A stretch of DNA of 64,000 nt, from the IMG/VR virus record IMGVR_UViG_3300005673_000003, positions 1-64,000 of that record; one strand, given 5' to 3'. The DNA comes from a virus. A program made the translations under genes and the position numbers. The notes beneath the pieces are model-generated. The model saw nothing but the letters and a program-made list of their open reading frames with translations. It was not told the DNA's origin and made no database searches. Position 1 is the first letter of the stretch. Every line of letters starts with the position of its first letter. Shown here piece after piece: positions 22,170 through 44,025 of this stretch.

Positions 22170-22829
22170 TCAATAACCCGATAATAGCTCAGCAGCTAGC
22201 GCTTCTACTACCAGGCCCCAGGCTATCTCGTCATCTTCTGGTAGCGGCTCTCCCCGAACCTCCTCGACCTTGAGGCGTGCCCGTTGGATTGTTGCCATTG
22301 CGCCGATGGGGATTTTGAGCTTAAGAGTTACCCACTTTTCGCTGGAGGAGTCGCGCCTGCGTTTACCCTTCGGTTGCTGCTCTGCTGAGCGAGATTGTTC
22401 GATTAAGGCTAGCAGTTCATTCTCTGGGATTGGCATAGTTGAGGCCACCTGATTCAATCCAACCTCAAGCTCAATCTCCCCCAGCAGTTGCATTAAGTCA
22501 TTTTGGGCTGCTTCCCCATGAGTTGAGTTCATGACGATAGAGAGATGCTTTGCTTCGGCATCGCTTAGCCCATGAATGATGTTGGCGTACACATCACCCG
22601 ATAACTCCCTGGCCCGATGTTCTCCTGAGAGTATCTGGTAGAAGCCAGGGAGTAAGGGATGATGTCTAACCAGTAACTCTTCCACCTGTCCAAAGAATCC
22701 AAGGGAGCCAGCGATCGCCCGTTGCTGGATTTCGTCGGTTTGCTGGATATTCCAGGGGTTTGGCACCAGCTTATCAACTGGTACTAAAACCGCTCTCTCA
22801 ATCCGAAAGTGACTCCCTAAAGGCTCCAT
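22170..22829 (-). CDS. ParB/Srx N-terminal domain protein
   Basis: VPVDKLVPNPWN...FGQVEELLVR...YQILSGEHR. Confidence 0.8.
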   Translation of the reverse strand: MEPLGSHFRIERAVLVPVDKLVPNPWNIQQTDEIQQRAIAGSLGFFGQVEELLVRHHPLLPGFYQILSGEHRARELSGDVYANIIHGLSDAEAKHLSIVMNSTHGEAAQNDLMQLLGEIELEVGLNQVASTMPIPENELLALIEQSRSAEQQPKGKRRRDSSSEKWVTLKLKIPIGAMATIQRARLKVEEVRGEPLPEDDEIAWGLVVEALAAELLSGY

Positions 22830-23343: not shown

Positions 23344-26300
23344 TTACCGCGTCCGTTCAACTTCTGACCTTAAGATGTCTACGATCGCTCGTTTTAATTG
23401 CGGTTCAATCATATCCAAAAATTCCATTGCCGATGCTCTGATTGATTGCTGGCTATCCTGTCCTCCCTCGATATTGATATTAATATCTCCAAAATTGATT
23501 TGAATGGGTGGCAGCTCTGCTCCCCCTATAGATGCGCCAGCAGGAGCGAGGACGGGCTGAGGGATGGGGATTGGGATTGGCGGGAGCATCTGCAGGAGCG
23601 AGGTAGCTCCAGAATTCATCTGCTCCAAAATCGGGGCAAATAGGCGAGAAGCGGCAGGATTGACCACATACTCGCCAGGGGTAAGCATTGCTGGCACGCT
23701 ATCTGTCTTACCAGAACCTGCAACCAAGCCCCCTACTGCAAACTTCTGGACTGGGGTTTCTGGATTAGTATTCCCTCCACCGAATAGCGCTCCAACGACA
23801 GGTAGATTCGCGGCAAACTGCCCAATATTGGCAACTGCGCTGACAATACCCTGCACGATATTAGCGATTAATTGGAATGGAGCAACCAAGCCCTCAACCA
23901 CCGGGGTCAGCACGAACGAGACTGCATCTGCAACAAATCCAATTACATTGAAGATGCCCTCTAGCACCCAAGCAACCAATTTTAAGGGGCCGAGCAGGGC
24001 ATTAGTAATCGCCCCAGCAATGCCGATGAAGACCTGGCCCAATCCACCATCGCCCTGGCCGCCAAATAAAGGAGCTAGAGCATTCATAAGAGCCTGCCCG
24101 ACTCTTATGACCGGAGCAATGATGCGGCCAATTGCAGCTCCTATCCGGTTGATCATAGAGTTGAATGATTGCCAAACCTCATTAGCAATCCCCATAACTG
24201 ACCCAATGAAGTTGCCGATGATGGCATTGATCACCCCAAAGACTCCATCAACCAGAGTCCTGATGCCCAGGAAGTTATTTTGGAATCCCTGATAGAGAAG
24301 ATAGATTGCACCAGCAACCAATCCTATTCCCGCGATAAAGGGAAGCATCGGCCCGGTGATTGCGGCCCAGGCTACAGAAGCGATGGATCCCAATGCGGCA
24401 AAGCCAGCGCTGACGATTCCAGTGATACCTCCCATCGCTGCAAGCCCAGATACTAGAGCAGGGATTGCCCCAGCTAAGCTGATCACACTGGAAAATACCA
24501 TGCTGATGGTTCCCAGTAGTCCTCCCAAGGCAGGGTTAACCACGCTTACCAGACTGGTAATCGCATTCGCGGCTTGTCCTACTGCTCCCCTGGCTTGCTC
24601 TTCAGAATTTTGGAAATCTAAATTTTTAGAATTCTGAACTTCTGGAGGTTGAGCAGGGGTAGCCGCTGCTTCTACACCCGTTGCAATGGGAGGAGCGTTC
24701 TTTTTGAATAATCGATTGATTAGTGACGGCTTAGGCTGTTTAGAGTTGAGTTCGGAATCAAACTCAGCCATTGTTACGCCTTCAGGGACGGTGCCTACTT
24801 TTCCAGTGACAACGTTAGCGGCTCCCCTGACAAATTTGCCAACCGGAGAGCTGGAGATCGCTTCTCCAATCCCCCTGATTTTCGCTTCTATTGCCTCCAG
24901 CATTCTGACAAAGCTTTCCCATGCCTGCTTGGGTCGCTGGAGCGACAAACCGATAGCTCCAGCGACTGTATTAATGACCTGGCCGAGGGCTTGGAACATC
25001 CCCTGCACTGCTCTGGTAGCCCCGCTAAAAACAGCTCTCATGATGCTGGCAGTACCATCAAAGACTTGCCCGAATCCCATAAAGATTTGAGCGATCGCAT
25101 CCCTCATTCCCTGGAAATCGAGTCGCACCAGCGAAACGAGGGTTTGAAGGGTGCCGCGAATCACATCAGACACGCCCAAGACAATCTGAGCTAACCCTTC
25201 AAAGGCTCCCGAAATCGCCAGCATGACTCCGATGAAGATAGAGCGCAGGCCCAAGAAGTTTCGCGATACCAGATAGATGGCAACACCCACACCAGCCAAT
25301 AGCAAGATCACCGGAGAGAAGGAGAACAGAGCGGAAGCTCCGAATGCGAGGACAGACCAAATTAGATTATTGAGTGCTTTGCCTACGGTATCGGTTAGCA
25401 CGCTGCCGATTGCTGAGAAGGTTCCAGTCAATTTATTTTCGGAGGCCGCAATATTGCCAAAGAAGTTTTTGAAGCTGGTATAGATACCACCGAAAGAGGC
25501 ATCCCAGGCCGCATGAACATTTGCCATGACTGGATGCAGAGCGCTCGACATTGCACCTTCGACAGATGAAGCAACGCCGCTAAATAGCCCGGTCAGAATA
25601 TTTCCGCTCTTTGCCGCATTAGATACCAAATTGACAAAGCCCCCACCAATTTGATGGATTGCCTTATCCCAGGCAATTGGTATCCAGACCGTCGGTGAGT
25701 GATTTAAGGCGTTAATCAACCCTTGCCCTGCCTGTACACCCATTCCAACTAATCCACCCATCAATCCACCAAACCAATCGCCAAACCCCTGCCATGCCCC
25801 CTGGATGAGCTGAGCAGCGAAGGAAAGGGTATTAGCAACCCCTGACGCTATCCCTTGCAGGATATTTAAGGGATTCAGGATGAAGGTGATGGCATTAAAG
25901 AGCGTCCCGAATACTCCGGTTGTAAATTCGATAGCAGTGCGGATACCCAGGAAATTGGTTTTGAAGATCAGCGCTCCCACTGCAACCGCTGCCCCTACTG
26001 CCGCAATGATAGGTAGAGCAGGGAGTAACGCTGTTCCAATTGCAGCTCCCACGCTCATCAATGGGGGGATCATGCTGAGCATACTGGCTCTGACGATAGG
26101 AGCCAGCTTAATCAAGAGGGTGAAGCCCTGCCCTGCCAGGGAGCTAAGCAATCTTCCAGCGCTGGCGATAAATGGAGTAATTGCCCCGAATGCTGTTTTC
26201 AATCCTGGGAGCGATTGCATTAACCCTTCTACGCTACTGGTGAGTGCGGCGAAGCCCATGATGGGTGCAGCGAATTGAGGGGCGATGACGCTCAGTACAC

Positions 26301-29300
26301 CTCCCATCGAATTAGACATATTGCTGGCAGTGCTTAGCGCTTGCGAGTGGATAGCATTCAGCTTTTTCAAATTCTCTTGCTGAGAAGGCAGCTTAGGAGC
26401 CTGAGCAGGTTTGACTGGGGAAGCTACAGGAGCAGCATGAATTGATTGATTTACAGGGGCAGCAATTGCTTTCTTGGTGCCGCCCATTATCTTTTCTGTG
26501 TCGATACCAATGCCTTTCAGGATGCCACCGATGGTTGTTCGCATCCCAGCAAATACTCCCTCGACTGTTTGAGCCAGGGAGGAAAGGGCAGATTTAATGC
26601 CATTAAAAATCAGCTTAGCCCCCTGCTCGATCCGCTCAAAATCGAGAGTGATAGCTCCAGCGAGGATACTAAAAGCACCTTTGATCATCTCTGCAACAGA
26701 AGCAGCGATTTGCAGGATTCCTCGGAAGACTGCGAACCCAGCTTGACCAATTCCAATTAGAGCGGTACGAATGCCCAGAAAATTAGTGGCGATCGCCACC
26801 CCTGCCAGTACTACCCCTCCCATGATTGCCAGGAATGGAAGCAGCGCTGTAGAAGCAGTTACTCCAAAGAATACGGCTCCCGCTCCTGCTGTAAAGAACT
26901 GCTGGGTTGCTTTGCCGATTACATCGATCAGGGAGCCAATCCCAGAGATCACAATATCGATACCCTTGGATAATCCCTGGCTAATCAATGGGCCAGCCGC
27001 GCCCAGGACTCCGGTTAACTTGCCTCCAGTTTGAGCGCCAGCATCAACCAGGGAGGTAAGACCTCCTCCAATCTTCTGGACAGCCTCTGACCAGGCAATC
27101 GGAATGCGAACCGTTGGCGAGTGATTTAAGGCGTTGATCAGCCCCTGCCCAGCTTCTGCACCCATGCCAACCAATCCACCCATCAGATTACCAAAGAATC
27201 CAGCGAACCCTTCCCAAGCTCCTTGGATCATTTGAGCGGCAGAGGTAAGCGCGAAGGCGATGCCCGATGCTATCCCTTGCAGGATATTTAGAGGATTCAG
27301 TACAAAAGTGACGGCATTGAAGAGTATCCCGAATATCTTAGCGGTCAATTCGACTGCACTACGGATTCCCAGGAAATTGGTCTTGAAAACCAGGGTGGTA
27401 ATAGCAACCGCTGCTCCCACTGCGGCAATCACTGGAAGGATAGGCATTAGCGCTCCAACTACCGCTGCACCCATGCTCATGAGTGGGGGAATCATGCTGA
27501 TGACGCTAGCTCTCAAGATGGGAGCATAGCGGATCAATGCTCCAAACCCCTGGACTGCCAATTTACTCATCAATTGAGCAGTGCTGGAGAGCGTTGGCAG
27601 GATAGCTCCGAATGCGGTTTTAATGCCGGGAATCGAGGTAATCAATCCCTCGATATTGGAGGTAATAGCCGCGAATCCAGCGAGGGGAGCGGCGAATTGG
27701 GGAGCCACCATGCCCAGCATTCCCGCTAGCGAGTTTGATAGATTGCTGGCACTATTGAGCGCTTCTGAATGCAGTGCTTTGATCTTGGCTTGATGATCTA
27801 TGCCTTGAGCGATCGCTGGCTTCTTCTCTGCACTTTGTACCGGAGTAGGAGCAATAATCGATTGATTTTTAGCCTGCACTTTACCGAGTAGTTTATCAGT
27901 GTCCAAGCCAATTCCTTTGAGGATGCCGCCGATAGCAGTTCGCATTCCCCGGAAGATTCCCTGAATGGTTTCAGCAAAGGCTGAGAGTGTATTCTGTAAG
28001 CCAGAGAAGACGAGTTTTACACCCTGCTCGACTCGCTCAAAATCGAGGGTGATTGCACCAGCGAGGATACTAAAAGCACCCTGGATAAACTCGACCGCAG
28101 ACATTGCGACTCTGAGAATACCTTGGAAAACAGAAACACCTGCCTGCCCAATCCCGACGATCACGGTACGCAGGCCCAGGAAGTTGGTAGCCAGCGCAAT
28201 CGCTCCCAGTACTGCTCCTCCCAGGATTAATGTAAAGGGTAGAAATGCAGTGCTAGCAGTGATACCGAATAGGATTGCACCCAATCCAGCTACCGAGAAC
28301 TGATGCTGTACCCCTCCGATGGCATTCGATAGAGACTGGATGCCTGCACCCATTAAATCCCCACCTTGCTTAACAGATCCCATCAGATTCCCCATCAGGG
28401 AAGCACCCACCGATTGAATGCTGTCAAATTTGCCAATCAGCCAATCAGCAAATCCCGTCCACGCTGCTTTTAAGGGCTGAGGAGATAGTTCTGCTATTGG
28501 AGGGGTAACGGGCTGTACAACGGGCTTAATGACGGGCTGGATAACTTGCTCTACAACTGGCTGAGCAACGGGAGCCGCTGCAACCGGAGTAATGACTGGA
28601 GCGGGAGCAGCGGCAACAGTAGGAGCGGTGGGAGCAATCGGAGCAGGCACCATTGGAGCAATGGGAGCGGGAGTAGTAACCTGCTCGACTGGGGGAGCGG
28701 ATGGGGAAGCTTTTTCTGCTGGCTTGCCGGGAATAAGTTTGGTGATTCCAGAGATTACCTGCCCTGCCTTTTGGAATGGGCTAATTAAGAAGGTGGAGAT
28801 GGTTGCTCCAATTTGGGCGATCGCTTGCTGGACAGCCTGCACCCCTTGCAATAAGAATCCGATGAGTGATAGCGCTGCTCCGAATGGGGAGGTGATAGTA
28901 CGAGCTGCCGCGCTTACTCCCTGCCATGCAATTGACAAGAGGTTGATTGGATTAATCAGTCTGAAGATAACTCCTCCGACCAGGCCCAGGAGATTAAACA
29001 ATCCTCCCACTACCACTCTGATTCCCTGAAAATTATTTCTAAATGCCAAATACAGCACGCCGGAAGCTAATGCAATGCCAGCAATAATAGGCAAGAACGG
29101 CATCATCGCTGCCATCATTGGGGCCATCGCTGAGATAGCGCTGGTTGCCAGTGTGATCAAACTCCCCCGCAAGCTTCCAATCATCCCGATCACTGCCGGG
29201 AGTTGGCCCTTAAGAGCGATCGCCTGTCGGGTAAGAATTTGGAAACCCCCCTTAGCAGCGGTCACGCCAATTTGGGCGACACTACCAGCAATCTGCTGGC

Positions 29301-32300
29301 TAACTTGAATAATGGAGGGTAGCTGCCCTTTGAAGGTAATTGCCTGCTGAGTCAGGAACTGCAACCCACCTTTAGCAGCGGCCATAGAAAGAGATGCAAT
29401 ACCACCGGAAACCTGTCGTGTAGCTGCCAGCATCGAAGGAATCTGACCCTTAAACGCAACCGCTTGCTGGCTTAAGAATCCAAGCCCTTGGCCCATTGCC
29501 GCTTTACTTAGCGCTGGCAATTGAGCAGTAAGCGATTTTGCTCCCTGGACGATCGCGGGAATCTGGCCCCTGAAGTTTCCAGCTTGCTCCAGAATCCCTT
29601 TGCCGACATTCTTCAGCGAGGGCAGCGCATTTCGCAGGCTACCAATCCCATCAATCAGCGAGGATACAGCCAGCAAGGGAGTCGCTAATCCCGGAGCAAA
29701 GCCGCTGAGTGCTACTCCTATGCCGCTCACCGCTTGATTAGTAGAGGCCAGCATTCGCTTCTGATGAATAGCTACTTTACCCTCCAGCTCTGCCATCGCA
29801 CTAATAGCCAGCCGAGCGTCAGGGGGATGCACGATTGGTGCTGGGATAACTGGAGCGGGATGGATAATTGATTGATTTATCGGCTTGATGACCGATTTCT
29901 CGATAGTCGATTTTTCGATGTTCGCGATGGGCGATTTTCCGACTATCGGGGATAGGGTATTTTTAACCTTCCCGGCGATACGCTCAGCATCTAACCCAAT
30001 CCCTTTCAGGATTCCACCTACAGCCGTTCTAGCTCCCGCAAAAATCCCCTTGATTGTTTCAGCTAGAGTTGCGGCGGCTGACCGGACAGCATCAAAAGCG
30101 AGTTTAGCCCCTTGCTCAATTCGCTCAAAGTCAAGCGTGACTGCTCCTGCAAGGATATTAAATATCCCCTGGATTAACTCCGCAGTCGAGCTGATAACTC
30201 CTAAGATTCCTTTGAAGACTGCAATACCTGCTTGCCCGACTCCGACCAATACCGTCCGCAGGCCCAGGAAATTAGTGGCGATCGCTACTCCAGCCAGCAC
30301 AACCCCAGCCATAATCGCAGTCACCGGAAGGAATGCAGCGCTAGCCGTCACTCCAAAGATGACAGCACCAATCCCAGCCAGCGAGAATTGCTTGGAGATG
30401 CCGCCGATGATACCCGTCAGGGAAGACACTCCAGCAGAGACAGTATCAACTCCTTTCTGGACGCTGCCAGCCAGGGCAGGCATGATGGCAGCACCAGCCG
30501 CCCGAATCATGGAGAATCTGCCAGATAGCCAGTTAGAGAAAATTGACCACTGCGCTTGCAATGGATTGGGAGCTAATTCAGCAACCGGAGATGCTTCTGG
30601 GGGCTTAACTCTGGCTTCTATCGCCTGGGTCACTACTTGCTGGATGGGCTGCACTACTGGAACTGGAGCAGGGGGAGGCTCAATAATTTGCTGTACTACA
30701 GGTTGTACTACAGGCTCAGGAGTAACCACCGGAGCGGCAGCTATGGCAGGTTTAGGCTCTGCTTTCTTGCTAGGCAATAATCGATTGATTCCTGCACCAA
30801 TGCCAGAGGCAACCTGTCCAGCCTTTTGGAATGGAGCTACCAGGAAGGTGGAGATAGTGCCTCCCATGCCAGCGATCGTCTTAGCTAAGCTGAGCGCTCC
30901 TGTCACCAGGAACCCGATTAGCGAGAGGATCTTGGTAAATGGGAACTCCAGCAAGCGTACTGTCAAGCCGATCCCCTGCCAAACCAAAGAGATTAGATTC
31001 AGCGGATTCAAGAGGCTTAGCACCCTCCCAGCCATGCCGCCGATAACGCCTATGACTCCTTCGAGCAAGCTCCGAATACCCAGAAAATCCTTAGCAAAAA
31101 TCAGATAGAGTGCTCCGACTGCCAATCCCACCCCGGCAATGATGGGCAGGAATGGAACTATCGCGGCCATCATTGGGGCCAGGGCAGAGACAGCAGTACT
31201 GCCCAGAGTTAGGACGCTGGCCCGGAGATTACCAACCAATCCAAGCACTGCTGGAAGCTGCCCCCTAAGCGCTCCCACTTGCCGGATTGCTATCTGGAAG
31301 CCGCCTTTTGCGGCGGTTGACCCAAGCTGAATTAATCGATTTGAGAATCCCTGAGTAGCCTGGAGGATAGCAGGAAGCTGGCCCCTAAGAGCGATTGCTT
31401 GGCGAGTAGCGATTTGCAGACCTCCCCTGGCAGCGGTTATGCCAAGCTGAGCGAATCTGCCGGAGAATGCCTGAGCAGTTTGCATCAGGGCGGGTAATCG
31501 GCCCCTAAGTATCCCAATCTGATTTACCGCAACCTGGAAGCCGCTCTTTGCAGTGCTTATGCCAATTTGAGCTATCTTGCCGGAAAAATCCTGAGCGAGT
31601 TGCTTGACCAATGGAAGCTGCCCTCTTAAAGCGATCGCTTGCCGTTCCATGAATCGCAACCCGCTCTTACCAGCAACCGCGCCCATGCCTGCAATCGAGC
31701 TGGCAATCTGCTTTGTCCCTGCCAGGATGCCGGGGAGCTGCCCCTTGAATGTAGTTGCCTGCTGGGAGAGGAAAGTTAACCCCTTGCCTGCAGCCAGCTT
31801 ACTTAACGCTGGGAGTTCAGCGGCTAATGATTTGGCACCGGATACGATCGCAGGAATCTGACTCTTAAAGCTGCCAGCCTGCGTCAGCAATTCTTTCCCG
31901 GTATTCTTGAGCGATGGCAGCGCACCTTTTAGCCCTGATACCCCATCAATCAGCGAGGATACCGAGAGGATAGGCGCGGCTAATCCAGGAGCGAATCCGC
32001 TTAAGGCTACTCCCACCGAGCTTACAGCTTGGTTTGTAGAGGCCAGCATTCGAGTCTGACGCCCTGTGACCTCATGCTCTAATTTTGTCAAGGCATTAAG
32101 AGCTTGATGAGTATCAGGTGGTTTTACCTCTATTTTTGAAACTGCTGGCGGGAGTAGCTTTGGAGCTTCGATTGGAGAGTTTGCTAATCGAATAATTGAT
32201 TGATTATTGACTGGCTTAGCTAAAGCTGGCAGGGTTGGCTCTGAAGGTAGAGCCAGGTTAGGAGTAGGGCGAGGAGTGAGGGATGGGGAGTGGGGAGTAG

Positions 32301-35300
32301 TAAGTAGCTGAGCAGGAGGCTGCACCGGAGCGGGAGTAGGAACGGGCTTGGCAGTAAGAACATCGGGAGCGTGAGGTACTTCTGTAGAAACTTTAGGAGC
32401 TTCCAAGGTTTCTACAACGGTTGCTCTTTTGCCAAACCCAAACTTAGATTTCACGGTTTCCACTGCTTTGGCGGGAGCAGTGGAGATAGAAGAAACTAGA
32501 TTTCTAAATTTCTGCTGTATCTGGTCGAGCAGGCTCATAAATCCTTTCCAGGCAGCTTCAGGAGCAGCGAGGACGGAGGCCATGAGAGCGGCGGCAGCGC
32601 TGGCAGATGATTCAATGAAGTGGAATACTGCCTGTCCGGTCTTGCCGATGAATTGCAGCGATGCGGCTGGAGCTTTGAAGGTGATTGCGATCGCTCCAAA
32701 GGTGCCTCTGATGATGCCTTCTAACCCCTCGAAAACACCTTGCAGTAACTGCGCTGCACCCCGGAAGACTCCGGTTAGGGCATTAGCTACTCCCTGCCCG
32801 ATTCGTAAAATGCCGGAGAATGCGAGATGCGCGGCTTCCTGGATGGCACTGAAATCACCTCTGATAGCAGAACCGATGGAAGTAAAGATCTGCACTACTC
32901 CCTTTGCAGTCTGCACCAGCCCTTGAATGATTTCATAAATCCCTCGGCCCAGTGATCCGATAATTTGGATCACTCCTCCCAGGACGGTACGCAAGCCCAG
33001 GAAGTTGGTAGCGATCGCCAATACTGTGAGCGCTATCCCTCCCAGGATTAAAAGCATCGGAGAAAAGGCACCCAATGACGCAATCCCGAATAACCCTACC
33101 CCGAACGATAAGCCGCTCATGGTCTTACTGATTCCGTCGAGCGCTCCTGAGAACTTAGCGCTGAATCCGGTTGCCAGCTCGAATACCCCTGATAACCGCT
33201 CCTTGAGCTTGTCGATTAGCGGCTGTACGCCTGTTTCTACCGCTTTGCCGATGGGAGTTAGTTCAGCTTGCTTAATCCCAGCATCCCAGGTTGCTTTGAC
33301 TGCCCCTACCAGTTGCGTGATAGCGGCTTGCACCAGTGGAGCATTAGCCTGAATGGATGCTGCCTGCTGAGCAATCACTTGGGTTACAACCGGGGTCACA
33401 GATTGTTCTGGAATGACTGGAGCAGGCAGTACCGGAGCAGGTAAGCCCGGAATTGTTTGCTGCAAGAATTGATTGATTTGCCCGGTTATCCCTGCCAGGT
33501 CAACGCTGGGGGCTGGGATAGGAGGCATCTCAATTTGGGGGAAGGTAAATTTGGGTGCTTCTGGTGTTCCAGTATTGATGACGGGATTACCGGGAGCAGG
33601 CACCGGAGCGGCTAATGCTGGCGCGAGAGCTGGGGTTTGCTGATTGAAAAATTGATTGATTTTATCGGTGACTCCAGAAAGATCTACTACTGGCACCATT
33701 GCCATGCCAGGGATCTTCCCAGTCAATGGCGCTTGCTCTACTACCTCTGCTAAGGGCTGAGCGACCGCAGTTTTGATCTCTCTTGCATCCTCTTTTTTGC
33801 GCAGGAAGGGAGGGATGATATTTTCAAAACTATCCTTAATGCTATTGGGCACAGCCATCAAAATATCAGTCAGCCAGCCTGCGAAAATCCTCCAAAGAGT
33901 CTTGATTGAATCGATTGCGGCATTAGCGATGCTTGGGAGGATCATGAACGGGAAAGCGATCGCCCTCCCAATCATCTGCCCAACGATTTCGCCTGATGCT
34001 GCCATTTTGGTGAAGGAGGCGATCGCCATTCCAACCGCTTCCCCAATGCCGCCAAATGCCGCTTGCATTGCTCCGGTGAATGGGGATAGAGCTACCGTTG
34101 CCACCTCGATCGCTGGCTTTAACCCCTGGTAAATTCCCTCTGCAATCCCTTTGACTAATCCCCAGACAAATCCCAAGGGAGCAACGATTGCGCTCAGTAC
34201 AGTACCCAGGACATTGATTCCAGGGGTCAGATACTCGATTGCAGCATACAGGCCCAGAATTGCTCCAATCGCTAGCGTGACCGGATTAAAGATCAGCGCC
34301 AGCGCTCCAGTAATAAATCCGGTCACGGTGGTTGCCAGCCCAGTAAAACCTCCCCCCAGAGCGACCAGGGCACCCATTAATCCCTGCTCCCCAATCGCAA
34401 CGGTAACAGTCTGGAAAAATCCAGTCAGGGGGATTAGCCCAGTTCGCATAACGGTGGAAGCGATACCAGCTTCAGCTATCGCTGCTTGCAGTCCAAAGAA
34501 AGCAGCGGCTGCAGTACCTAGAACGACTGCTAGCGAGGCGATTCCAGCGGTCAGAGTTGCAGCAATAGCGATTGAATTTTTGATTGGATCTGGGAGGCTT
34601 AGGAAAGTGCGGATCAGTTGCGAAATAGTATCTACAGTAGTTTTTATTGCAGGATTAAGAGCTTCCATGAATTGAATTTTTAAGCCCTCAATCGCAGAGG
34701 AAAGAGAGCGCATAGAGCCACCGATGCCGGATTCCATGATTCCCGCTTGACGCTTTGCCGCTCCTTCTCCCTGACTGGAAGCAAGAGCATCTCTGGTCAT
34801 GCTTCTAATATCTTTGGTATGGGAGGCCAGGTAAGTTGCAGCGCTCGAACCTTCTGTACCAAAGATAGATTTCATCTTCTGGATTTTCTCGGCTTCCGTA
34901 AGCCCTGCCATACTGCGGTTTAATTCACCGAGTACCACATCAACCGATTTCAGTTTACCTGTGTCATCTACTGTCTCTACTCCCAGCTCTGCCATCGCAC
35001 TCTTGGCGCGAGTAGTGGGAGCAGCAAGGGAGGTAAAAACTGTTCTTAATGCAGTACCTGCCATACTGCCTTTAATCCCTGCATTCGATAGCAGGGCAGT
35101 CATAGCAGCGGTTTGCTCCAAGGTAGCTCCGTAGCTCTGAGCAGAAACACCCGCATACTTCAGCGTTTCGCCCAAGTCTGCTACTTCAAGCTGACCCGCT
35201 CCGGCAGCGTAGGCTAACACATCCGCGACATGGTTTGCTTTCCCTGCCTGCAACTGGAATTGACCCAAAGTGGAGACGGTAATATCGGTGGCTTGAGCTA

Positions 35301-36156
35301 ACCCCAGATTTCCGGCAGCGGCCAGGTTTAGCGTGCCTCCGATCGCAGCCATTTGCTGATCCACCTTGTACCCAGCTTGGGCCAGTAGCACAAAACCGCT
35401 AGCAGCTTCAGAGGCAGAGAATCGAGTTTCCGCGCCCAATTGCTTTGCTTTGGTGCGGATCTTATCCATATTGTCAGCGGTTGCCTGGAGCGGATCCAGA
35501 ACCGCTTTCACTTGCAGCATCTGATCATCGAAGCTCTTGAAGACATTGAAGCTATCAATGCCAGCGCCAATCAGAGGAGCAGCAACTTGCATCCCGGTAT
35601 CAGCAATACTTTGAGCAACCCCTTGCCGACGCTGAGCAATTACGGCAGAGCGTTGATTCTCATGCAAATCAATCTTGTCGCCTGCTATCCGCTGCTCCCG
35701 CTGCAACTGCGCTCTAAATTCGCGCTCCGCTGCTGTATCCCCCTGGATTTGCAACTCCAGCCGCTTCAATTCAGCGATATACTCAGCAACCGATTGCTTA
35801 GCCTGATGGAATGCCTTAGCATCCCCAATGTCTCCAAAATCGATATTTCTAGATTCTGCTCGGAGCGCTCGGAATTCCCCCTTGAGTGGCATCAGAGCTT
35901 TCCCAACAGAAGAAAGCGCGGTTCCAGTATGAGCAATATTGTTCGCTGCCTGCTTAGCGGCAGTCCCTGCTCCCTGGAAGGCAGACTTTAGCCCAGAGCC
36001 TAGATCTGATGATTTGACAATGGTAGCAACCCGCTTTACAGCATCCTCGATATTTTTTAGGCCGCGCTCTGATTTATCCATATTGCTGAGAGCGGCTGCT
36101 CCCAACTCGAAATCGAAGACCGCTTGTAACCCATATCTATCTTGATTGTCAGCCAT
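23344..36156 (-). CDS. Giant tail tape measure protein (~4,270 aa, TP901-type core; start reassigned to MADNQD)
   Basis: AKQLGAETRFSASEAA...LAQAG, LGETLKYAG, AGIKGSMAGTALR core; many NFLG(L/I)R repeats; C-terminal FAVGGLV...DSVPAMLTPGEYVVN. Confidence 0.93.
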   Translation of the reverse strand: MADNQDRYGLQAVFDFELGAAALSNMDKSERGLKNIEDAVKRVATIVKSSDLGSGLKSAFQGAGTAAKQAANNIAHTGTALSSVGKALMPLKGEFRALRAESRNIDFGDIGDAKAFHQAKQSVAEYIAELKRLELQIQGDTAAEREFRAQLQREQRIAGDKIDLHENQRSAVIAQRRQGVAQSIADTGMQVAAPLIGAGIDSFNVFKSFDDQMLQVKAVLDPLQATADNMDKIRTKAKQLGAETRFSASEAASGFVLLAQAGYKVDQQMAAIGGTLNLAAAGNLGLAQATDITVSTLGQFQLQAGKANHVADVLAYAAGAGQLEVADLGETLKYAGVSAQSYGATLEQTAAMTALLSNAGIKGSMAGTALRTVFTSLAAPTTRAKSAMAELGVETVDDTGKLKSVDVVLGELNRSMAGLTEAEKIQKMKSIFGTEGSSAATYLASHTKDIRSMTRDALASSQGEGAAKRQAGIMESGIGGSMRSLSSAIEGLKIQFMEALNPAIKTTVDTISQLIRTFLSLPDPIKNSIAIAATLTAGIASLAVVLGTAAAAFFGLQAAIAEAGIASTVMRTGLIPLTGFFQTVTVAIGEQGLMGALVALGGGFTGLATTVTGFITGALALIFNPVTLAIGAILGLYAAIEYLTPGINVLGTVLSAIVAPLGFVWGLVKGIAEGIYQGLKPAIEVATVALSPFTGAMQAAFGGIGEAVGMAIASFTKMAASGEIVGQMIGRAIAFPFMILPSIANAAIDSIKTLWRIFAGWLTDILMAVPNSIKDSFENIIPPFLRKKEDAREIKTAVAQPLAEVVEQAPLTGKIPGMAMVPVVDLSGVTDKINQFFNQQTPALAPALAAPVPAPGNPVINTGTPEAPKFTFPQIEMPPIPAPSVDLAGITGQINQFLQQTIPGLPAPVLPAPVIPEQSVTPVVTQVIAQQAASIQANAPLVQAAITQLVGAVKATWDAGIKQAELTPIGKAVETGVQPLIDKLKERLSGVFELATGFSAKFSGALDGISKTMSGLSFGVGLFGIASLGAFSPMLLILGGIALTVLAIATNFLGLRTVLGGVIQIIGSLGRGIYEIIQGLVQTAKGVVQIFTSIGSAIRGDFSAIQEAAHLAFSGILRIGQGVANALTGVFRGAAQLLQGVFEGLEGIIRGTFGAIAITFKAPAASLQFIGKTGQAVFHFIESSASAAAALMASVLAAPEAAWKGFMSLLDQIQQKFRNLVSSISTAPAKAVETVKSKFGFGKRATVVETLEAPKVSTEVPHAPDVLTAKPVPTPAPVQPPAQLLTTPHSPSLTPRPTPNLALPSEPTLPALAKPVNNQSIIRLANSPIEAPKLLPPAVSKIEVKPPDTHQALNALTKLEHEVTGRQTRMLASTNQAVSSVGVALSGFAPGLAAPILSVSSLIDGVSGLKGALPSLKNTGKELLTQAGSFKSQIPAIVSGAKSLAAELPALSKLAAGKGLTFLSQQATTFKGQLPGILAGTKQIASSIAGMGAVAGKSGLRFMERQAIALRGQLPLVKQLAQDFSGKIAQIGISTAKSGFQVAVNQIGILRGRLPALMQTAQAFSGRFAQLGITAARGGLQIATRQAIALRGQLPAILQATQGFSNRLIQLGSTAAKGGFQIAIRQVGALRGQLPAVLGLVGNLRASVLTLGSTAVSALAPMMAAIVPFLPIIAGVGLAVGALYLIFAKDFLGIRSLLEGVIGVIGGMAGRVLSLLNPLNLISLVWQGIGLTVRLLEFPFTKILSLIGFLVTGALSLAKTIAGMGGTISTFLVAPFQKAGQVASGIGAGINRLLPSKKAEPKPAIAAAPVVTPEPVVQPVVQQIIEPPPAPVPVVQPIQQVVTQAIEARVKPPEASPVAELAPNPLQAQWSIFSNWLSGRFSMIRAAGAAIMPALAGSVQKGVDTVSAGVSSLTGIIGGISKQFSLAGIGAVIFGVTASAAFLPVTAIMAGVVLAGVAIATNFLGLRTVLVGVGQAGIAVFKGILGVISSTAELIQGIFNILAGAVTLDFERIEQGAKLAFDAVRSAAATLAETIKGIFAGARTAVGGILKGIGLDAERIAGKVKNTLSPIVGKSPIANIEKSTIEKSVIKPINQSIIHPAPVIPAPIVHPPDARLAISAMAELEGKVAIHQKRMLASTNQAVSGIGVALSGFAPGLATPLLAVSSLIDGIGSLRNALPSLKNVGKGILEQAGNFRGQIPAIVQGAKSLTAQLPALSKAAMGQGLGFLSQQAVAFKGQIPSMLAATRQVSGGIASLSMAAAKGGLQFLTQQAITFKGQLPSIIQVSQQIAGSVAQIGVTAAKGGFQILTRQAIALKGQLPAVIGMIGSLRGSLITLATSAISAMAPMMAAMMPFLPIIAGIALASGVLYLAFRNNFQGIRVVVGGLFNLLGLVGGVIFRLINPINLLSIAWQGVSAAARTITSPFGAALSLIGFLLQGVQAVQQAIAQIGATISTFLISPFQKAGQVISGITKLIPGKPAEKASPSAPPVEQVTTPAPIAPMVPAPIAPTAPTVAAAPAPVITPVAAAPVAQPVVEQVIQPVIKPVVQPVTPPIAELSPQPLKAAWTGFADWLIGKFDSIQSVGASLMGNLMGSVKQGGDLMGAGIQSLSNAIGGVQHQFSVAGLGAILFGITASTAFLPFTLILGGAVLGAIALATNFLGLRTVIVGIGQAGVSVFQGILRVAMSAVEFIQGAFSILAGAITLDFERVEQGVKLVFSGLQNTLSAFAETIQGIFRGMRTAIGGILKGIGLDTDKLLGKVQAKNQSIIAPTPVQSAEKKPAIAQGIDHQAKIKALHSEALNSASNLSNSLAGMLGMVAPQFAAPLAGFAAITSNIEGLITSIPGIKTAFGAILPTLSSTAQLMSKLAVQGFGALIRYAPILRASVISMIPPLMSMGAAVVGALMPILPVIAAVGAAVAITTLVFKTNFLGIRSAVELTAKIFGILFNAVTFVLNPLNILQGIASGIAFALTSAAQMIQGAWEGFAGFFGNLMGGLVGMGAEAGQGLINALNHSPTVRIPIAWSEAVQKIGGGLTSLVDAGAQTGGKLTGVLGAAGPLISQGLSKGIDIVISGIGSLIDVIGKATQQFFTAGAGAVFFGVTASTALLPFLAIMGGVVLAGVAIATNFLGIRTALIGIGQAGFAVFRGILQIAASVAEMIKGAFSILAGAITLDFERIEQGAKLIFNGIKSALSSLAQTVEGVFAGMRTTIGGILKGIGIDTEKIMGGTKKAIAAPVNQSIHAAPVASPVKPAQAPKLPSQQENLKKLNAIHSQALSTASNMSNSMGGVLSVIAPQFAAPIMGFAALTSSVEGLMQSLPGLKTAFGAITPFIASAGRLLSSLAGQGFTLLIKLAPIVRASMLSMIPPLMSVGAAIGTALLPALPIIAAVGAAVAVGALIFKTNFLGIRTAIEFTTGVFGTLFNAITFILNPLNILQGIASGVANTLSFAAQLIQGAWQGFGDWFGGLMGGLVGMGVQAGQGLINALNHSPTVWIPIAWDKAIHQIGGGFVNLVSNAAKSGNILTGLFSGVASSVEGAMSSALHPVMANVHAAWDASFGGIYTSFKNFFGNIAASENKLTGTFSAIGSVLTDTVGKALNNLIWSVLAFGASALFSFSPVILLLAGVGVAIYLVSRNFLGLRSIFIGVMLAISGAFEGLAQIVLGVSDVIRGTLQTLVSLVRLDFQGMRDAIAQIFMGFGQVFDGTASIMRAVFSGATRAVQGMFQALGQVINTVAGAIGLSLQRPKQAWESFVRMLEAIEAKIRGIGEAISSSPVGKFVRGAANVVTGKVGTVPEGVTMAEFDSELNSKQPKPSLINRLFKKNAPPIATGVEAAATPAQPPEVQNSKNLDFQNSEEQARGAVGQAANAITSLVSVVNPALGGLLGTISMVFSSVISLAGAIPALVSGLAAMGGITGIVSAGFAALGSIASVAWAAITGPMLPFIAGIGLVAGAIYLLYQGFQNNFLGIRTLVDGVFGVINAIIGNFIGSVMGIANEVWQSFNSMINRIGAAIGRIIAPVIRVGQALMNALAPLFGGQGDGGLGQVFIGIAGAITNALLGPLKLVAWVLEGIFNVIGFVADAVSFVLTPVVEGLVAPFQLIANIVQGIVSAVANIGQFAANLPVVGALFGGGNTNPETPVQKFAVGGLVAGSGKTDSVPAMLTPGEYVVNPAASRLFAPILEQMNSGATSLLQMLPPIPIPIPQPVLAPAGASIGGAELPPIQINFGDININIEGGQDSQQSIRASAMEFLDMIEPQLKRAIVDILRSEVERTR

Positions 36157-36278
36157 ACTGCCCCAGCACGCAAAAAATAAGCACCGCAAAGAGGGTGCTC
36201 CTTGCAGTGCTGGTTCATATCTTAATTTTGTGAGGATTGCACTCCGGCATTCCTGCTCAGATTATATCAAGAGGCTAC

Positions 36279-36533: not shown

Positions 36534-36559
36534 TTTTAGCTCCTTCGATAATTGATTGA

Positions 36560-36799
36560 TTAAGCTGCTTCCAAAAGGCATTGCAGCGATCGGCCCAACT
36601 CATTCTCAGCTATCTCGAATACTTCGGCAAGCGTCCTCCCAGAACCATCCTCAGAAAGTGATTTAACCCTCTGCATGAAATCATTGAACGCGCTAACCCC
36701 TTCTGGCGGCAAGGAGTAAATGTAGTCGATAAACTCTCCTCCCAATGGGCCGCACTGCTTAATGATTTCTGCTCTTTCTAATGGTTTCATAGGTATCAC
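36560..36799 (-). CDS. Hypothetical protein
   Basis: 12-mer at 36810 upstream. Confidence 0.6.
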   Translation of the reverse strand: MIPMKPLERAEIIKQCGPLGGEFIDYIYSLPPEGVSAFNDFMQRVKSLSEDGSGRTLAEVFEIAENELGRSLQCLLEAA

Positions 36800-36847
36800 C
36801 GATAGCGATAATTGATTGATTTCGAAAGGGGACGCGATCTGCTTTGA

Positions 36848-39402: not shown

Positions 39403-40153
39403 GCTACTTCTCTGGCTCAGGGATTTAGTTAATTGGTTGCGTGAAGCAGTGGGGGGAGGAGTCTCTAGCACCTTTCACGTTGCAGAACATCTGAAGGGGT
39501 TAGATGGTGAATGCGAGGCTTGGCTAATTGGGACAGAGGAGTATGATTGCGGCATCCCCGGAATGACTGCTTGCTGGTATATTCGCCGGAATAGTGCATC
39601 CAAAGACTTCATTCTTCTGTGCTTCAATATCGCCCAAATTAAGGAGGCTTACAAACCCGCTGGAGATGGCTACCTGCCGGATGAATGGAGACGCAAATTC
39701 GAGGTTAATGCTCGACTACATCTCAAGCTACAAAAGAATGTGGGTGGCTCCCACTTATTTATGGTGTGCTCGGTGCAGCGTGAACCAGCTACCGTTAAAT
39801 TCACAGCAAATCAAGCGATCGAGTATAAATCGATTGATTGTGAATCCTGCTTTTCTGTAGATCTCCAGGGAGCATCGGTTGCCTGGATGGGCGCAAACGG
39901 CAGCGCTATCAAAATCGTTCGAGCAGTTGCAGAGCGAGTGCTGCAAATCCCAGCGATCAACTCCAGAGGATACCTCTGGGAGCAGGTAATTCTTTCGCTG
40001 TCAGATGCGGATGCTCGGCATACATGGTTGACCTGGCTCAATTACTTTTGCCGGGAGTACCGAGCAACCCGGATTGATGCGGAACACATCTTGCAGCCGC
40101 CGATCGGCAAGGCTTACTTCCAGCGTAAGCGTGCTAAGCAGCCCAAAGAATAA
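39395..40153 (+). CDS. Hypothetical protein (start MNELLL)
   Basis: Overlaps the upstream stop; AAGGAG RBS. Confidence 0.65.
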   Translation: MNELLLWLRDLVNWLREAVGGGVSSTFHVAEHLKGLDGECEAWLIGTEEYDCGIPGMTACWYIRRNSASKDFILLCFNIAQIKEAYKPAGDGYLPDEWRRKFEVNARLHLKLQKNVGGSHLFMVCSVQREPATVKFTANQAIEYKSIDCESCFSVDLQGASVAWMGANGSAIKIVRAVAERVLQIPAINSRGYLWEQVILSLSDADARHTWLTWLNYFCREYRATRIDAEHILQPPIGKAYFQRKRAKQPKE

Positions 40154-40594
40154 TCAATCAATTTCTAGCTCTAGCTTGGGTTCAACTCTTGCGAATCTGG
40201 GATTACCGTCGCGGTTAATGCCATACCAGGATTCTAAACTGCGTCGTCGATACGCTCCGGTCGGCATATCATCCGAGCGGTAAAGCACTTCCCAATCATC
40301 ATCAGAATCGCTCTCGCAATGGGAAACCCTGCCAACTACAATGTAGACTTTCTTCCTTCTATCATTGAGCCAACGGGAGCCGATTGCAGGGAATTCTAGA
40401 TTATCTTTCATGATTAAAAAAATAGGCTGCATGTTGCGTTGCAGCCGGAAACGATCTTGTTGCGTAGTCTTATAAGCCTGATTATATCGCAAACCAAAGG
40501 CTCCAGAAATAATCCCCCATTCTGGAGCCTTTGGAACCCGTGTTGACGAGGTATTGCCCAAATACAGTTTATGGAATGCTCTAAATATCGTCAA
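40154..40594 (-). CDS. DUF1653-like SH3-fold protein
   Basis: KVYIVVG...HCES...VLYRS...RSLESW...RF. Confidence 0.55.
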   Translation of the reverse strand: MTIFRAFHKLYLGNTSSTRVPKAPEWGIISGAFGLRYNQAYKTTQQDRFRLQRNMQPIFLIMKDNLEFPAIGSRWLNDRRKKVYIVVGRVSHCESDSDDDWEVLYRSDDMPTGAYRRRSLESWYGINRDGNPRFARVEPKLELEID

Positions 40595-42111: not shown

Positions 42112-44025
42112 CTACGCCTTCAACATTGCTGGCAGATTCTTGAGCAGAAACTCCATATCCTTAACACTGACTTCCAGGCCGGAAAAACCCTGATAAGCCT
42201 TCTGAATTTCTTCAATTTTTGGAGTAGAACCAATATCATGCTGAGCTTGGAGCCAAAGACTTAACGCTTTGTAAGGATCTCCCTTAGCTCCCTTCAGAAA
42301 AGGCGCATAAGGGTCACTACCGCTAGGCTGATTAGACGCTTGAGGCTGGGGAGCATTAATCGATTGATTATTGCTTCGAGGGGGAGTTGGGGGAGCAGTA
42401 GGGGTGAACCAAAAATCCTCTATCTCTTGCTGGGTAAATTCCGGCGAGGTATTCGCAACGGGCTTAGGAGGGGGAGGGGGAGGGGGAGCCTGGGGAACTT
42501 GCTGAGCGGGAACCTCTACCGTCATTTGGCTTGCGGCAGGGGGAGGGGAATCTGGGGGAGCGCTGGCAGATTTCGCAGGGGTAGCAGGAGCGGCAGGGGT
42601 GCCCGGAATGATACTCCCCGTCCAATTGCTCCCAGGCACCCAGTTAAGCCGCAACTCTTCCAGGCCATTAATCGGAGGAGTAGGCAGGTAGCCCATATCG
42701 ACGGGCAGCGAGGTAGCAAATCCGGCTGGCCTACCAACCTGCCGATAGATAGATTGAGCATACTCAGCCGCGCTATCTGGGATAGTGCGAGGAGAGAGTT
42801 TCATTTGAATCTTATCCTGAGTCATTTCAGCACCCATGATGATATGGGCCTGACGTAAAGCCTTCCGCTTGATGCCCATCTCTTCGAGCGTTAGAGTGTG
42901 CATCATTAGCCAGAAATAGATTCCGAACTTTTTAGCTTCTGTTGCCAGTTTATTTAGAGTCTTATTGACCTCCTCCCGCTCGTCGTCATCCAGCTCCTCT
43001 AATTGGTTGGTGAATTCATCAACCCCAACAACAACAGGAGGGTAGTTAATATTATTCTTTTTGCGATACTCAAACAGCTCTCGAACACGCAAAAGAAACT
43101 GATTAAGATCCTTTGCATCGCCTTTGAAAATACCACTTTGAACTGCCTTGGGAACGCTCTGCATTAATGGGATTCCAAGCCAGTTTGATCGAAATTCAGG
43201 AGTCGAGCCATTGCCGTAATGGCTATCGAACACATACAGCACCAAATTAGGCTCAGCAGTAGCCCATTGATAGAGCGCATAATGCGCGGCCACTGTTTTC
43301 CCTTCCTGGGAGTTCGCCGCAAAAACGCAATGCTCTTTGGCGCACTTAGCATACAACTCGTAGGCATCCTTGGGCCGCGCTAGCTCAGCTTGGTAAGCGG
43401 CTACTTCATCAAAGGAGGTCAGGTAATTTTGCTCCGGCATCCCTCCACCTGGCGCGGCTTCTAAAGCGGGTTGCTGATAAGGCAGCTCAAGCAGTCCATG
43501 TAATTGGAATTTTTCAAGGTAGCGAGGCTGCTTATACTCCGGCAGAGTCGAGATATAGCCTGCTAGATTATCCTCTGCGCTAATCATATCCACTGCATCA
43601 TTGAAAGCTTGGTTGTGAGCCAGCTTCTTGGCAAGCGAGATTTGATCTGCTCTCCGTAACTTGGAATGCGTCTCTTCTTGTGTTTGCTGGAGGTAGGAGA
43701 CATAGGAAAATGCGCCAGCGCTAATCGTGCTGGTAGCCAGCAGAAGGAAATTGGCAGCTTTGGGAATATGAAAAATAGGGGTCAGGATTAGTGATGCTCC
43801 GTAAGTGACGATCGCTAATCCTGCCAGCTTCCACATCGCAGAGCGCTGATCAGCAATCGATTGCCGGATAGCGTCAGTTTTAGGATCTCGAATGTAGCCC
43901 GTCTCATCGTAGACCTGATTAGCTCCTGGTATTGGTAGATAAGGATTGCCCTCAAACTGAGTGGAGCGGTAGTAATGGGGATTTTGAATTTCCTGATAGT
44001 AAGGATCGTATCCGTAAGTCATCAC
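42112..44025 (-). CDS. Membrane-anchored FtsK/HerA-superfamily ATPase (coupling-protein-like)
   Basis: Two N-terminal TMs; ANSQEGKT P-loop; VVVGVDEF Walker B; EAKKFGI motif; Pro-rich linker and small C-terminal domain. Confidence 0.72.
   Translation of the reverse strand: MMTYGYDPYYQEIQNPHYYRSTQFEGNPYLPIPGANQVYDETGYIRDPKTDAIRQSIADQRSAMWKLAGLAIVTYGASLILTPIFHIPKAANFLLLATSTISAGAFSYVSYLQQTQEETHSKLRRADQISLAKKLAHNQAFNDAVDMISAEDNLAGYISTLPEYKQPRYLEKFQLHGLLELPYQQPALEAAPGGGMPEQNYLTSFDEVAAYQAELARPKDAYELYAKCAKEHCVFAANSQEGKTVAAHYALYQWATAEPNLVLYVFDSHYGNGSTPEFRSNWLGIPLMQSVPKAVQSGIFKGDAKDLNQFLLRVRELFEYRKKNNINYPPVVVGVDEFTNQLEELDDDEREEVNKTLNKLATEAKKFGIYFWLMMHTLTLEEMGIKRKALRQAHIIMGAEMTQDKIQMKLSPRTIPDSAAEYAQSIYRQVGRPAGFATSLPVDMGYLPTPPINGLEELRLNWVPGSNWTGSIIPGTPAAPATPAKSASAPPDSPPPAASQMTVEVPAQQVPQAPPPPPPPKPVANTSPEFTQQEIEDFWFTPTAPPTPPRSNNQSINAPQPQASNQPSGSDPYAPFLKGAKGDPYKALSLWLQAQHDIGSTPKIEEIQKAYQGFSGLEVSVKDMEFLLKNLPAMLKA

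Follow-up and report, generated by a model that had tools for sequence, protein, structure and literature searches.

A giant tape-measure gene and the word it carries

The 64-kb window analysed here (the whole stretch of DNA, 64,000 nucleotides) comes from a complete, 148.7-kb cyanobacterial phage genome, and it contains a tape-measure gene of 12.8 kb. The identity of its product is supported by a match to the Pfam family PhageMin_Tail (PF10145) over residues 246-444 (E = 2e-47; 162 bits against a cut-off of 33). The protein is built from large paralogous modules, 40-65% identical to one another in pairwise comparison, with Pro-rich linkers between them, and giant homologues of 2471-7005 amino acids occur in cyanobacterial metagenomes. 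One exact 12-base word, AATCAATCRATT (the tag), is found in sense orientation eight times within this gene, and further copies flank it.

23344..36189, minus strand: giant tape-measure gene, 4281 amino acids in a single open frame
33650..33661, minus strand: A-form tag copy, frame 2 (KINQF), residue 843, at the start of a Pro-rich tract
33467..33478, minus strand: A-form tag copy, frame 2 (QINQF), residue 904, tandem 61-residue paralogue of the copy at 33650
32194..32205, minus strand: A-form tag copy, frame 0 (NQSI), residue 1329; its downstream flank is homologous to the residue 2105 site, its upstream flank is not
31330..31341, minus strand: two-substitution variant of the wider YR family, of uncertain status
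30779..30790, minus strand: G-form tag copy, frame 2 (GINRL), residue 1800
29866..29877, minus strand: A-form tag copy, frame 0 (NQSI), residue 2105, at a chimeric module junction
27856..27867, minus strand: G-form tag copy, frame 0 (NQSI), residue 2775
26440..26451, minus strand: A-form tag copy, frame 0 (NQSI), residue 3247
24710..24721, minus strand: G-form tag copy, frame 2 (LINRL), residue 3823
42358..42369, minus strand: G-form tag copy, frame 0 (NQSI), in a Pro-rich linker near the C terminus of a 637-residue protein
36550..36561, minus strand: typical leader tag copy, 16 nt 5' of the start of the small gene that immediately precedes the tape-measure gene; a Shine-Dalgarno sequence lies in this gap
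36810..36821, minus strand: typical leader tag copy, 19 nt 5' of a start codon
23291..23302, minus strand: tag copy at the 5' end of the next gene, downstream of the tape-measure gene

An earlier, sequence-only reading of this DNA had listed nine copies in the tape-measure gene. Eight are exact; the ninth, at 31330, departs from the tag at position 5 (A to G) and position 8 (C to T) and lies in a structured repeat rather than a linker. Two reading frames are used, not three: frame 0 encodes NQSI, and frame 2 encodes INQF from the A-form and INRL from the G-form. The placement in linkers held for all eight exact copies, each of which directly precedes a Pro-rich tract, at its N-terminal edge. 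Over the next 25 residues Pro makes up a fraction of 0.22, compared with 0.054 overall, and 0 of 20,000 permutations came up to 0.22. The copy at 42358, said to lie in an ATPase linker, is likewise exact and in a Pro-rich linker; its protein has a Walker-A-like motif but matched no Pfam family. The linker at residue 2483, paralogous to that at residue 1800, lacks the tag (7 of 12 bases match). None of the eight tape-measure copies has a Shine-Dalgarno sequence and start codon behind it, so the internal copies do not resemble ribosome-binding sites, in agreement with the earlier argument against a purely RBS-like role.

A genome-wide tag that follows gene direction

The window holds 55 copies of the tag, compared with 0.05 ± 0.22 expected from dinucleotide-preserving shuffles, and the whole genome holds 103 exact copies, for which the chance expectation is far below 1. 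They are spread evenly at about 0.7 per kb, and 72 of the 103 are intergenic. In the tape-measure gene the density is 0.62 per kb, equal to the genome average, whereas in all other coding sequence, which has eleven further embedded sense copies, it is seven times lower (0.09 per kb). The excess has a Poisson p of 3e-5 if the copies are independent and of 0.03 if only four origins are counted. Stripped of its internal copies, the gene would form a tag gap of 12.8 kb, compared with a maximum of 5.3 kb elsewhere. A need for periodic sites, suggested earlier, therefore has the density and this gap in its favour; against it, spacings outside the gene look exponential rather than regular, and one gene of 3.0 kb and several of about 2 kb have no internal tag, so that periodicity is suggestive only.

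Variation in the tag is tightly confined. There are 32 G-form copies and 12 further single variants (A to G or C to T on the sense strand), and the tolerated changes are limited to two YR steps, a position-specific pattern; the wider YR family, AATYRATYRATT, which includes the variant at 31330, is itself enriched. T to C changes at internal positions were never seen, A to G changes at positions 2, 6 and 10 are almost absent, and the A-form contains no G. The word is a degenerate palindrome in which the asymmetric form predominates: one perfectly palindromic version occurs at 4 sites and three others at 0. The tag was absent from all relatives found.

Orientation follows gene direction, with 81 sense and 15 antisense copies (p = 4e-12), and it reverses at every small block of opposite genes, even at single-gene strand switches. 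This ties the tag to transcription rather than to the polarity of the DNA molecule and disfavours the DNA compaction or ejection roles raised earlier. The 81:15 bias is also present in non-coding spacers, and avoidance of stop codons accounts for only part of it.

About half of the copies lie 10-21 nt 5' of a start codon, upstream of the ribosome-binding site; 49 of 103 have both a Shine-Dalgarno sequence and a start codon after them, with a modal tag-to-start gap of 16 nt, and 19 sense copies, eight of them in the tape-measure gene, lie within coding sequence without these elements. At least four genes, including that for the large terminase, begin 0-2 nt past the tag without a Shine-Dalgarno sequence, a hint that the tag takes part in initiating translation there. 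Six of the conserved sigma-70-type promoters have the tag, or a version with one mismatch, 5-16 nt past the -10 box, the classical position of an operator, so the tag is not the promoter in these cases. Other sense copies, at genome positions 107989, 134134 and 72595, lie just upstream of sigma-70-type promoters or just past terminators with no gene start behind them. The genome has several promoter-proximal terminators (for example, at genome position 66164), and where a leader has a terminator the tag is found downstream of it, not upstream; 5 of the 15 antisense copies are directly 5' of terminator hairpins. Tagged genes span all functional classes and include maintenance genes such as a ParA-like gene, and the first genes of several direction blocks have no tag. 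The genome encodes both ParA-like and ParB-like genes, and no tyrosine integrase was found in it.

Selection on the nucleic acid and how the tag may be read

Synonymous sites between the tape-measure modules are near saturation, with 38-48% identical codons at identical residues, and in four paralogous linkers that are otherwise unalignable the 12-mer is the sole conserved island. Across the predicted proteome, the exact 12-mer encodes 16 of 17 NQSI tetrapeptides, compared with 3.4% expected from codon usage, and 9 of 13 IN[QR][FL] peptides. Descent of all tape-measure copies from one duplicated segment without synonymous excess, which the sequence-only reading had set against its own claim of selection on the nucleic acid, does not describe these data: the copies fall into at least four positional classes, in two frames, and the synonymous excess is extreme. 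The tag is thus almost certainly selected at the nucleotide level and tied to transcription. The tape-measure copies are real members of a phage-wide 12-nt tag maintained by selection. What is read is the nucleic acid, in the sense direction with respect to transcription; retention of the tag in linkers means that it is read on DNA or RNA rather than as protein. The gene amounts to a natural experiment in which the tag is separated from gene starts and still kept at genome-average density, at the cost of linker peptides that the tag dictates. Since it is kept away from gene starts, a purely ribosome-binding role is ruled out, and control of the transcription unit or of the transcript is indicated.

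As to mechanism, we tentatively favour, by analogy, a stoperator-like DNA roadblock that exerts orientation-dependent silencing or elongation control. A binder encoded by the phage would recognise the tag as an asymmetric site on DNA and, depending on orientation, block RNA polymerase or control it; a tag close behind a promoter would serve as an operator, and one inside a transcription unit as a roadblock. The phage puts the tag into almost all short gaps between genes and at the start of its primary transcripts; in a 12.8-kb frame with no intergenic space, the tag has gone to the only places that tolerate it, where the Pro-rich linkers between modules have their N-terminal edges, which raises the gene to the genome-wide density. 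Roadblock control of this kind would keep a plasmid-like prophage silent, and a 12.8-kb stretch free of sites would escape it. The ParA-like and ParB-like genes and the lack of a tyrosine integrase fit a plasmid-like carrier state that needs silencing, the sharp definition of the tag and its absence from all relatives found resemble the specificity of repressor sites, and the sense copies upstream of promoters or past terminators fit an operator or roadblock. A six-frame, sequence-level search of the whole genome found no homologue of L5 gp71 at E <= 1, although a non-homologous binder is possible; the sole nearby regulator candidate has a sub-threshold helix-turn-helix match, and no solved relative of it was found. 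Tags on maintenance genes such as the ParA-like gene are not obviously expected of a lysogeny silencer, and both the tags that abut starts without a Shine-Dalgarno sequence and the untagged genes of 3.0 kb and about 2 kb count against the roadblock.

A predicted small RNA offers an RNA-level reading of the same facts that we consider nearly as likely as the roadblock, although still doubtful in itself. Here an anti-tag RNA of the phage, possibly together with anti-tags in 3' UTRs, would recognise the tag in the message through base pairing; in leaders the duplex would cover the ribosome-binding site and block translation, and at tape-measure sites it would lead to cleavage or to titration of the small RNA. 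The predicted gene, on the genome minus strand at about 85690-85565, has a sigma-70-like promoter and a transcript of ~125 nt that ends in a 9-bp GC hairpin and a T-run, with an exact, single-stranded anti-tag just 5' of this terminator; the anti-tag's flanks are complementary to the consensus leader and include an anti-Shine-Dalgarno-like sequence. No Rfam family matched this predicted RNA. The frequent tag variants (the G-form and the single variants) keep pairing through G:U wobble, in line with the lack of internal T to C changes, yet the A to G changes at positions 2, 6 and 10, which wobble should also tolerate, are almost absent. The antisense copies beside terminator hairpins occupy the usual seed site of 3'-UTR-derived small RNAs, and tags at the 5' ends of primary transcripts suit recognition in RNA. 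At the tape-measure copies, however, pairing spans 12-14 nt (17 in one case), as random extension would give, compared with an average of 15 nt in leaders, and the predicted duplex energies are barely above those of random sites; ribosomes should clear so short and A/U-rich a duplex within a translated frame, and the sense copies upstream of promoters would have no role.

The remaining explanations seem to us less probable. The tag might be a positive elongation signal, a site in the non-template strand or the nascent RNA where a factor for processivity or antitermination is loaded or re-loaded, with boosters needed along a 12.8-kb gene. Its sense orientation, its early position in transcripts, its 12-nt length, the internal copies that restore genome-average density and the promoter-proximal terminators that need read-through all suit this idea. 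We think it improbable: a tag downstream of a leader terminator is in the wrong order for loading an antiterminator, and more than 100 copies, before almost every cistron, are far above any known ops, nut or put system. To our knowledge, cyanobacteria lack Rho, which removes the main reason for an antitermination system. An orientation-independent DNA signal (a parS-like partition site, a packaging or self-recognition mark, a guide for an FtsK-like pump or a target of 7-deazaguanine DNA modification), with the bias as a by-product, would explain the even density, the use of tolerated coding positions in several frames and the degenerate palindrome, and ParB-like genes are present. It too has a low probability, given that the bias extends to spacers, that stop-codon avoidance is only a partial cause and that perfect palindromes are not favoured. 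Polar translocase guides of the Chi or KOPS/SRS type were rejected because orientation follows individual genes, not the polarity of the molecule or replichore.

We consider it very unlikely that the tape-measure copies are functionless, whether as scars or microhomologies of module recombination or as relic leaders of fused genes. Some features invite that view: the four NQSI copies occupy homologous linker positions; the residue 2105 site, with an upstream flank resembling those at residues 2775 and 3247 and a downstream flank resembling that at residue 1329, is an exact homology breakpoint between module types; and a 39-nt patch identical between two modules shows ongoing gene conversion. 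Yet all 12 bases are fixed where the linker flanks have diverged past alignment, the two frames and multiple positional classes are hard to derive from scars, no relic Shine-Dalgarno sequence or start codon follows any copy, and both the linker placement in the unrelated protein at 42358 and the eleven embedded copies in other genes repeat the pattern elsewhere. Least probable of all is a phage-specific promoter with booster copies inside the gene, although the tag is sharp, asymmetric and sense-oriented, needs no -35 element and precedes many genes, and in this it resembles the late promoters of T4. At the conserved sigma-70-type promoters it lies past the -10 box and within the transcript, the first genes of several direction blocks are untagged while all functional classes are marked, and transcripts from the tape-measure copies would have no translation start site.

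On a broader view, which we hold as a possibility, an undescribed, phage-specific control system may require tags per unit of distance: one 12-nt word, sense-read by its own binder, by a master anti-tag RNA or by both, would mark the entire genome so that it is silenced collectively or recognised as self. If so, long tag-free stretches are selected against, and the need to carry a regulatory word of nucleic acid has shaped the linkers of the tape-measure protein and of at least one other protein. The system could show how about 190 genes of a 149-kb, plasmid-like phage of filamentous cyanobacteria are silenced or coordinated through one word.

Comparison with known systems

The uptake signal sequences of Haemophilus and Neisseria (USS/DUS) are words of 9-12 nt that occur at ~1 per kb, use tolerated coding positions in several frames and shape peptides. 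They act in either orientation and in cellular genomes, whereas the tag is oriented with transcription and concentrated before gene starts. The ops element of RfaH and the lambdoid nut and put sites are orientation-dependent elements (12 nt) read during transcription early in long operons; these number one or a few per operon and lie upstream of terminators, whereas the tag has more than 100 sites, typically past terminators. With lambda OOP RNA and small-RNA seed regulons the phage shares a predicted short RNA that ends in a terminator and has an unpaired stretch complementary to messages of the phage. Here, however, one seed would match about 100 sites, coding-region sites included.

The start-associated sequences (SAS) of Cluster K mycobacteriophages are phage-specific asymmetric repeats of no known function that stand in one orientation directly 5' of start codons and do not occur in the host or in other phages (PMC3203893). 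The tag is similarly phage-specific, asymmetric, singly oriented and associated with gene starts. The SAS, however, is 3-7 bp from the start and has the Shine-Dalgarno core within it, whereas the tag is upstream of the Shine-Dalgarno sequence (10-21 nt) or abuts the start; SAS number 11-19, in the non-structural arm only and virtually all at gene starts, compared with 103 tags genome-wide, structural genes included, of which only 49 precede a Shine-Dalgarno sequence and start.

Phage L5 has more than 20 stoperators, asymmetric 13-mers that occupy short intergenic spaces, whose orientation is linked to transcription and which are inactive when reversed (PMC9283540); some are located inside genes (PMC6550527). 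Like these Cluster A gp71 sites, the tag is a short asymmetric site (12 rather than 13 bp) with tens of copies genome-wide, in short intergenic spaces and near promoters, transcription-oriented, lineage-specific in sequence and occasionally intragenic. Unlike L5, this genome has no gp71 homologue, and its host is a cyanobacterium. The tag is about four times as numerous, keeps tightly to a place just 5' of the ribosome-binding site and recurs systematically in the linkers of a single giant protein. Outside actinobacteriophages, oriented repeats that span a phage genome, such as stoperators and SAS, are hardly known, and the cyanophage tag is denser and sharper than either.

Distribution of the tag across the phage genome

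The 12-mer AATCAATCRATT, read on the coding strand and here called the tag, occurs 55 times in the window compared with 0.05 expected from shuffles. The whole genome contains 103 copies, with A at position 9 in 71 and G in 32, and only 27 one-mismatch relatives, mostly altered at the two end positions; the flanking sequence shows hardly any conservation. Copies are predominantly oriented with the genes (81 sense, 15 antisense and 7 ambiguous), and at each small block of oppositely directed genes the tag orientation flips too. A Shine-Dalgarno sequence and a start codon lie 10-34 nt downstream of 49 copies, with a mode of 16 nt. The large terminase start codon is 1 nt past a tag (window 16193-16206) and lacks a Shine-Dalgarno sequence; this long N terminus is backed by a 59%-identical homologue at 99% coverage, and at least three other genes begin 0-2 nt past a tag, likewise lacking a Shine-Dalgarno sequence. 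Some sense copies instead follow a stop codon or terminator and precede the next promoter, and no gene start comes after them. Antisense copies often lie immediately past a stop codon, and five immediately precede a terminator hairpin. Two antisense tags (window 40152-40163 and 41243-41254) provide the TGA stop of minus-strand genes, and at 41243 the next gene may start at a TTG that overlaps this stop.

The record, of which the window is the first 64 kb, is a single contig of 148,728 bp that has direct terminal repeats and a CheckV completeness of 100%, and its sequence is rich in the cyanobacterial octamer HIP1 (68 copies). The closest relatives of its IsrB-type (RRXRR) gene (window 19298-20341), 60-65% identical, are found in Tychonema, Microcoleus, Heteroscytonema and Oscillatoriales genomes, which points to a filamentous cyanobacterium as the probable host. 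ParA-like and ParB-like genes are present and no tyrosine integrase was found in the genome, a combination that would be compatible with a plasmid-like lifestyle. One ParB-like gene (window 22170-22829) lies downstream of the tape-measure gene, one small gene away, and a ParB_N gene also adjoins the giant tape-measure gene of a distant relative (locus L004). Upstream, two small genes separate the tape-measure gene from that of a 613-aa protein (window 36848-38689) with a C-terminal peptidase M15 (endolysin-like) domain.

Neither viral contigs nor 405 cyanobacterial genomes yielded a relative that carries the tag, and none turned up among the closest relatives of the terminase and the tape measure. 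Searches of viral and genome collections with the tape-measure protein and terminase recovered no tag-bearing relative, and five fetched relative loci (L001-L005) had zero copies and no comparable over-represented word apart from HIP1. Scans of viral contigs for the tag pattern gave just single chance matches, 401 cyanobacterial genomes had at most two matches each to the tag plus GGAG, and four filamentous cyanobacterial genomes had 9-16 scattered bare 12-mers per 5-8 Mb. Searched for in the literature, the exact 12-mer turned up only in eukaryotic and primer contexts that are unrelated. Small cyanobacterial genomes of 1.6-1.7 Mb (G136, G171, G229, G262, G342, G349 and others) share one conserved site, the 12-mer followed by TATGGAG, probably a leader belonging to a single conserved gene and unrelated to the phage. 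Tape-measure homologues from cyanobacterial metagenomes (P0057-P0061) have lengths of 4894-7320 aa, the upper limit also being put at 7005 aa, and imply a phage clade whose tails may exceed 0.7 micrometre; the tag was absent from all fetched loci.

Copies inside the tape-measure gene

The tape-measure gene (window 23344-36189, minus strand) is one open frame of 4281 aa with a PhageMin_Tail domain. The sequence-only reading had placed nine copies within it, eight of which are exact; the ninth, at 31330, is a double variant. A further copy at 42358, outside the gene, is exact as described. The copies had also been taken to use several frames, and they do use two, one encoding NQSI (aa 1329, 2105, 2775 and 3247) and one encoding INQF or INRL (aa 843, 904, 1800 and 3823); INQF and INRL are one and the same frame rather than a second and a third.

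Because the homologues were too distant (the best being 28-40% identical for the tape measure and 54-59% for the terminase) and the relatives tagless, we tested selection by comparing codons between paralogues and by a proteome-wide codon test rather than with orthologues. The tape-measure protein consists of large modules, paralogues with 40-65% identity to one another. Where NQSI-carrying modules have the same residue, they use the same codon in only 38-48% of cases, and their nucleotide sequences are 60-64% identical, which puts synonymous sites close to saturation. In codon alignments of the four homologous NQSI linkers, the 12-mer is the sole island of identity and the rest is unalignable. 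Across the predicted proteome, the exact tag encodes 16 of the 17 occurrences of NQSI, whereas codon usage predicts 3.4% per occurrence, and it encodes 9 of 13 occurrences of IN[QR][FL]. Judged from codon choice, the DNA word is the reason for the peptide and not the reverse. These results uphold the earlier proposal that selection acts on the nucleic acid rather than on the peptide, and they run against derivation of all copies from one duplicated segment with no excess synonymous conservation.

The site at aa 2105 is a homology breakpoint, its upstream flank resembling those at aa 2775 and 3247 and its downstream flank that at aa 1329, and the paralogue of the aa 1800 linker has no tag. Together with the frames, these comparisons place the internal copies in at least four positional classes. 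Separately, the modules around aa 2775 and 3247 are the same over a run of at least 39 nt despite 64% identity otherwise, which suggests gene conversion between tape-measure modules. The noted placement in linkers proved general: each of the eight copies is at the N-terminal border of a Pro-rich tract (Pro fraction 0.22 versus 0.054; reached in 0 of 20,000 permutations), five of the seven Pro-rich tracts of the protein carry a copy, and the copy at 42358 occupies the same position in an unrelated protein.

Counting sense copies that lie deeper than 100 nt within coding sequence, the 12.8-kb tape-measure gene has 8 (0.62 per kb) compared with 11 in the other 122 kb of coding sequence (0.09 per kb), an excess with a Poisson p of 3e-5 for independent copies, rising to 0.03 when the copies are reduced to four origins. 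Across the genome, the 74 gaps separating co-oriented copies have a median of ~1 kb, and the largest spans 5.3 kb. The proposed need for periodic sites gains some support in that the internal copies fill what would be a 12.8-kb gap, leaving none larger than 2.9 kb, but not as strict periodicity, as spacing elsewhere is no more regular than an exponential and the largest gap is close to the ~5.6 kb expected by rough estimate. Given these irregular gaps, and as a 3.0-kb gene and several ~2-kb genes have no internal copy, a requirement for a tag per distance is only suggested.

Candidate roles of the tag

Two predicted features bear on how the tag might act (genome coordinates):

Near 66164, 71740, 74398, 83560 (locus L135:1061), 105208, 107968, 110808 and 134112, minus strand: conserved sigma-70-type promoters
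85565-85690 (locus L006:1066-1191), minus strand: predicted small RNA (~125 nt) that has a promoter-like site and a strong terminator and bears an exact anti-tag (the complement of the tag) in a single-stranded stretch

The promoters share an upstream box, an A-run followed by an 11-mer that partly mirrors the anti-tag, right against the -35 box. In six cases the tag, or a variant with one mismatch, follows the -10 box at a distance of 5-16 nt. Here it forms part of the transcript's 5' end and so is not itself the promoter; a promoter role is thereby contradicted and is the least probable of the readings. A pure translation-initiation role fails to explain why internal copies with no start site are under selection; as had been argued, the tag is not purely a ribosome-binding element, and none of the tape-measure copies has a Shine-Dalgarno sequence and start codon behind it. 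A symmetric dimer site based on the degenerate palindrome was also rejected, as perfect palindromes are not favoured. That the tag is a positive elongation signal seems improbable, and to much the same degree so does another DNA-level role, including a polar or orientation-free signal, against which stand the 81:15 bias and changes of orientation at the scale of genes. Slightly less probable still is that the internal copies have no function.

Two readings remain close. We tentatively favour the tag as a DNA site for a putative orientation-dependent binder, which would act as operator and roadblock, because this best fits the internal copies, those next to promoters and terminators, and a YR tolerance that is specific to position. 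The stoperators of mycobacteriophage L5 offer a precedent (PMC9283540, PMC6550527). No binder was identified, and a neighbouring regulator candidate has no solved relative. Possible, though rated somewhat lower, is that the tag is the RNA target of the predicted 125-nt anti-tag RNA, which is convergent with the gene (genome 85121-85564) of a 147-aa protein that weakly matches a helix-turn-helix, and which matches no Rfam family at the gathering threshold. G:U wobble would keep pairing with most of the common tag variants, and anti-tags adjoin terminators, but pairing at the tape-measure sites would be minimal.

In its mode of working, the tag would be most like the stoperators, although no homologue of gp71, the repressor that defines those of L5, was found in the phage genome. 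It sits where the start-associated sequences of Cluster K mycobacteriophages sit (PMC3203893) but, unlike them, has no Shine-Dalgarno core and has many copies away from gene starts. In shaping peptides it is like uptake sequences. By analogy, the tag may be placed among phage-wide oriented regulatory repeats.
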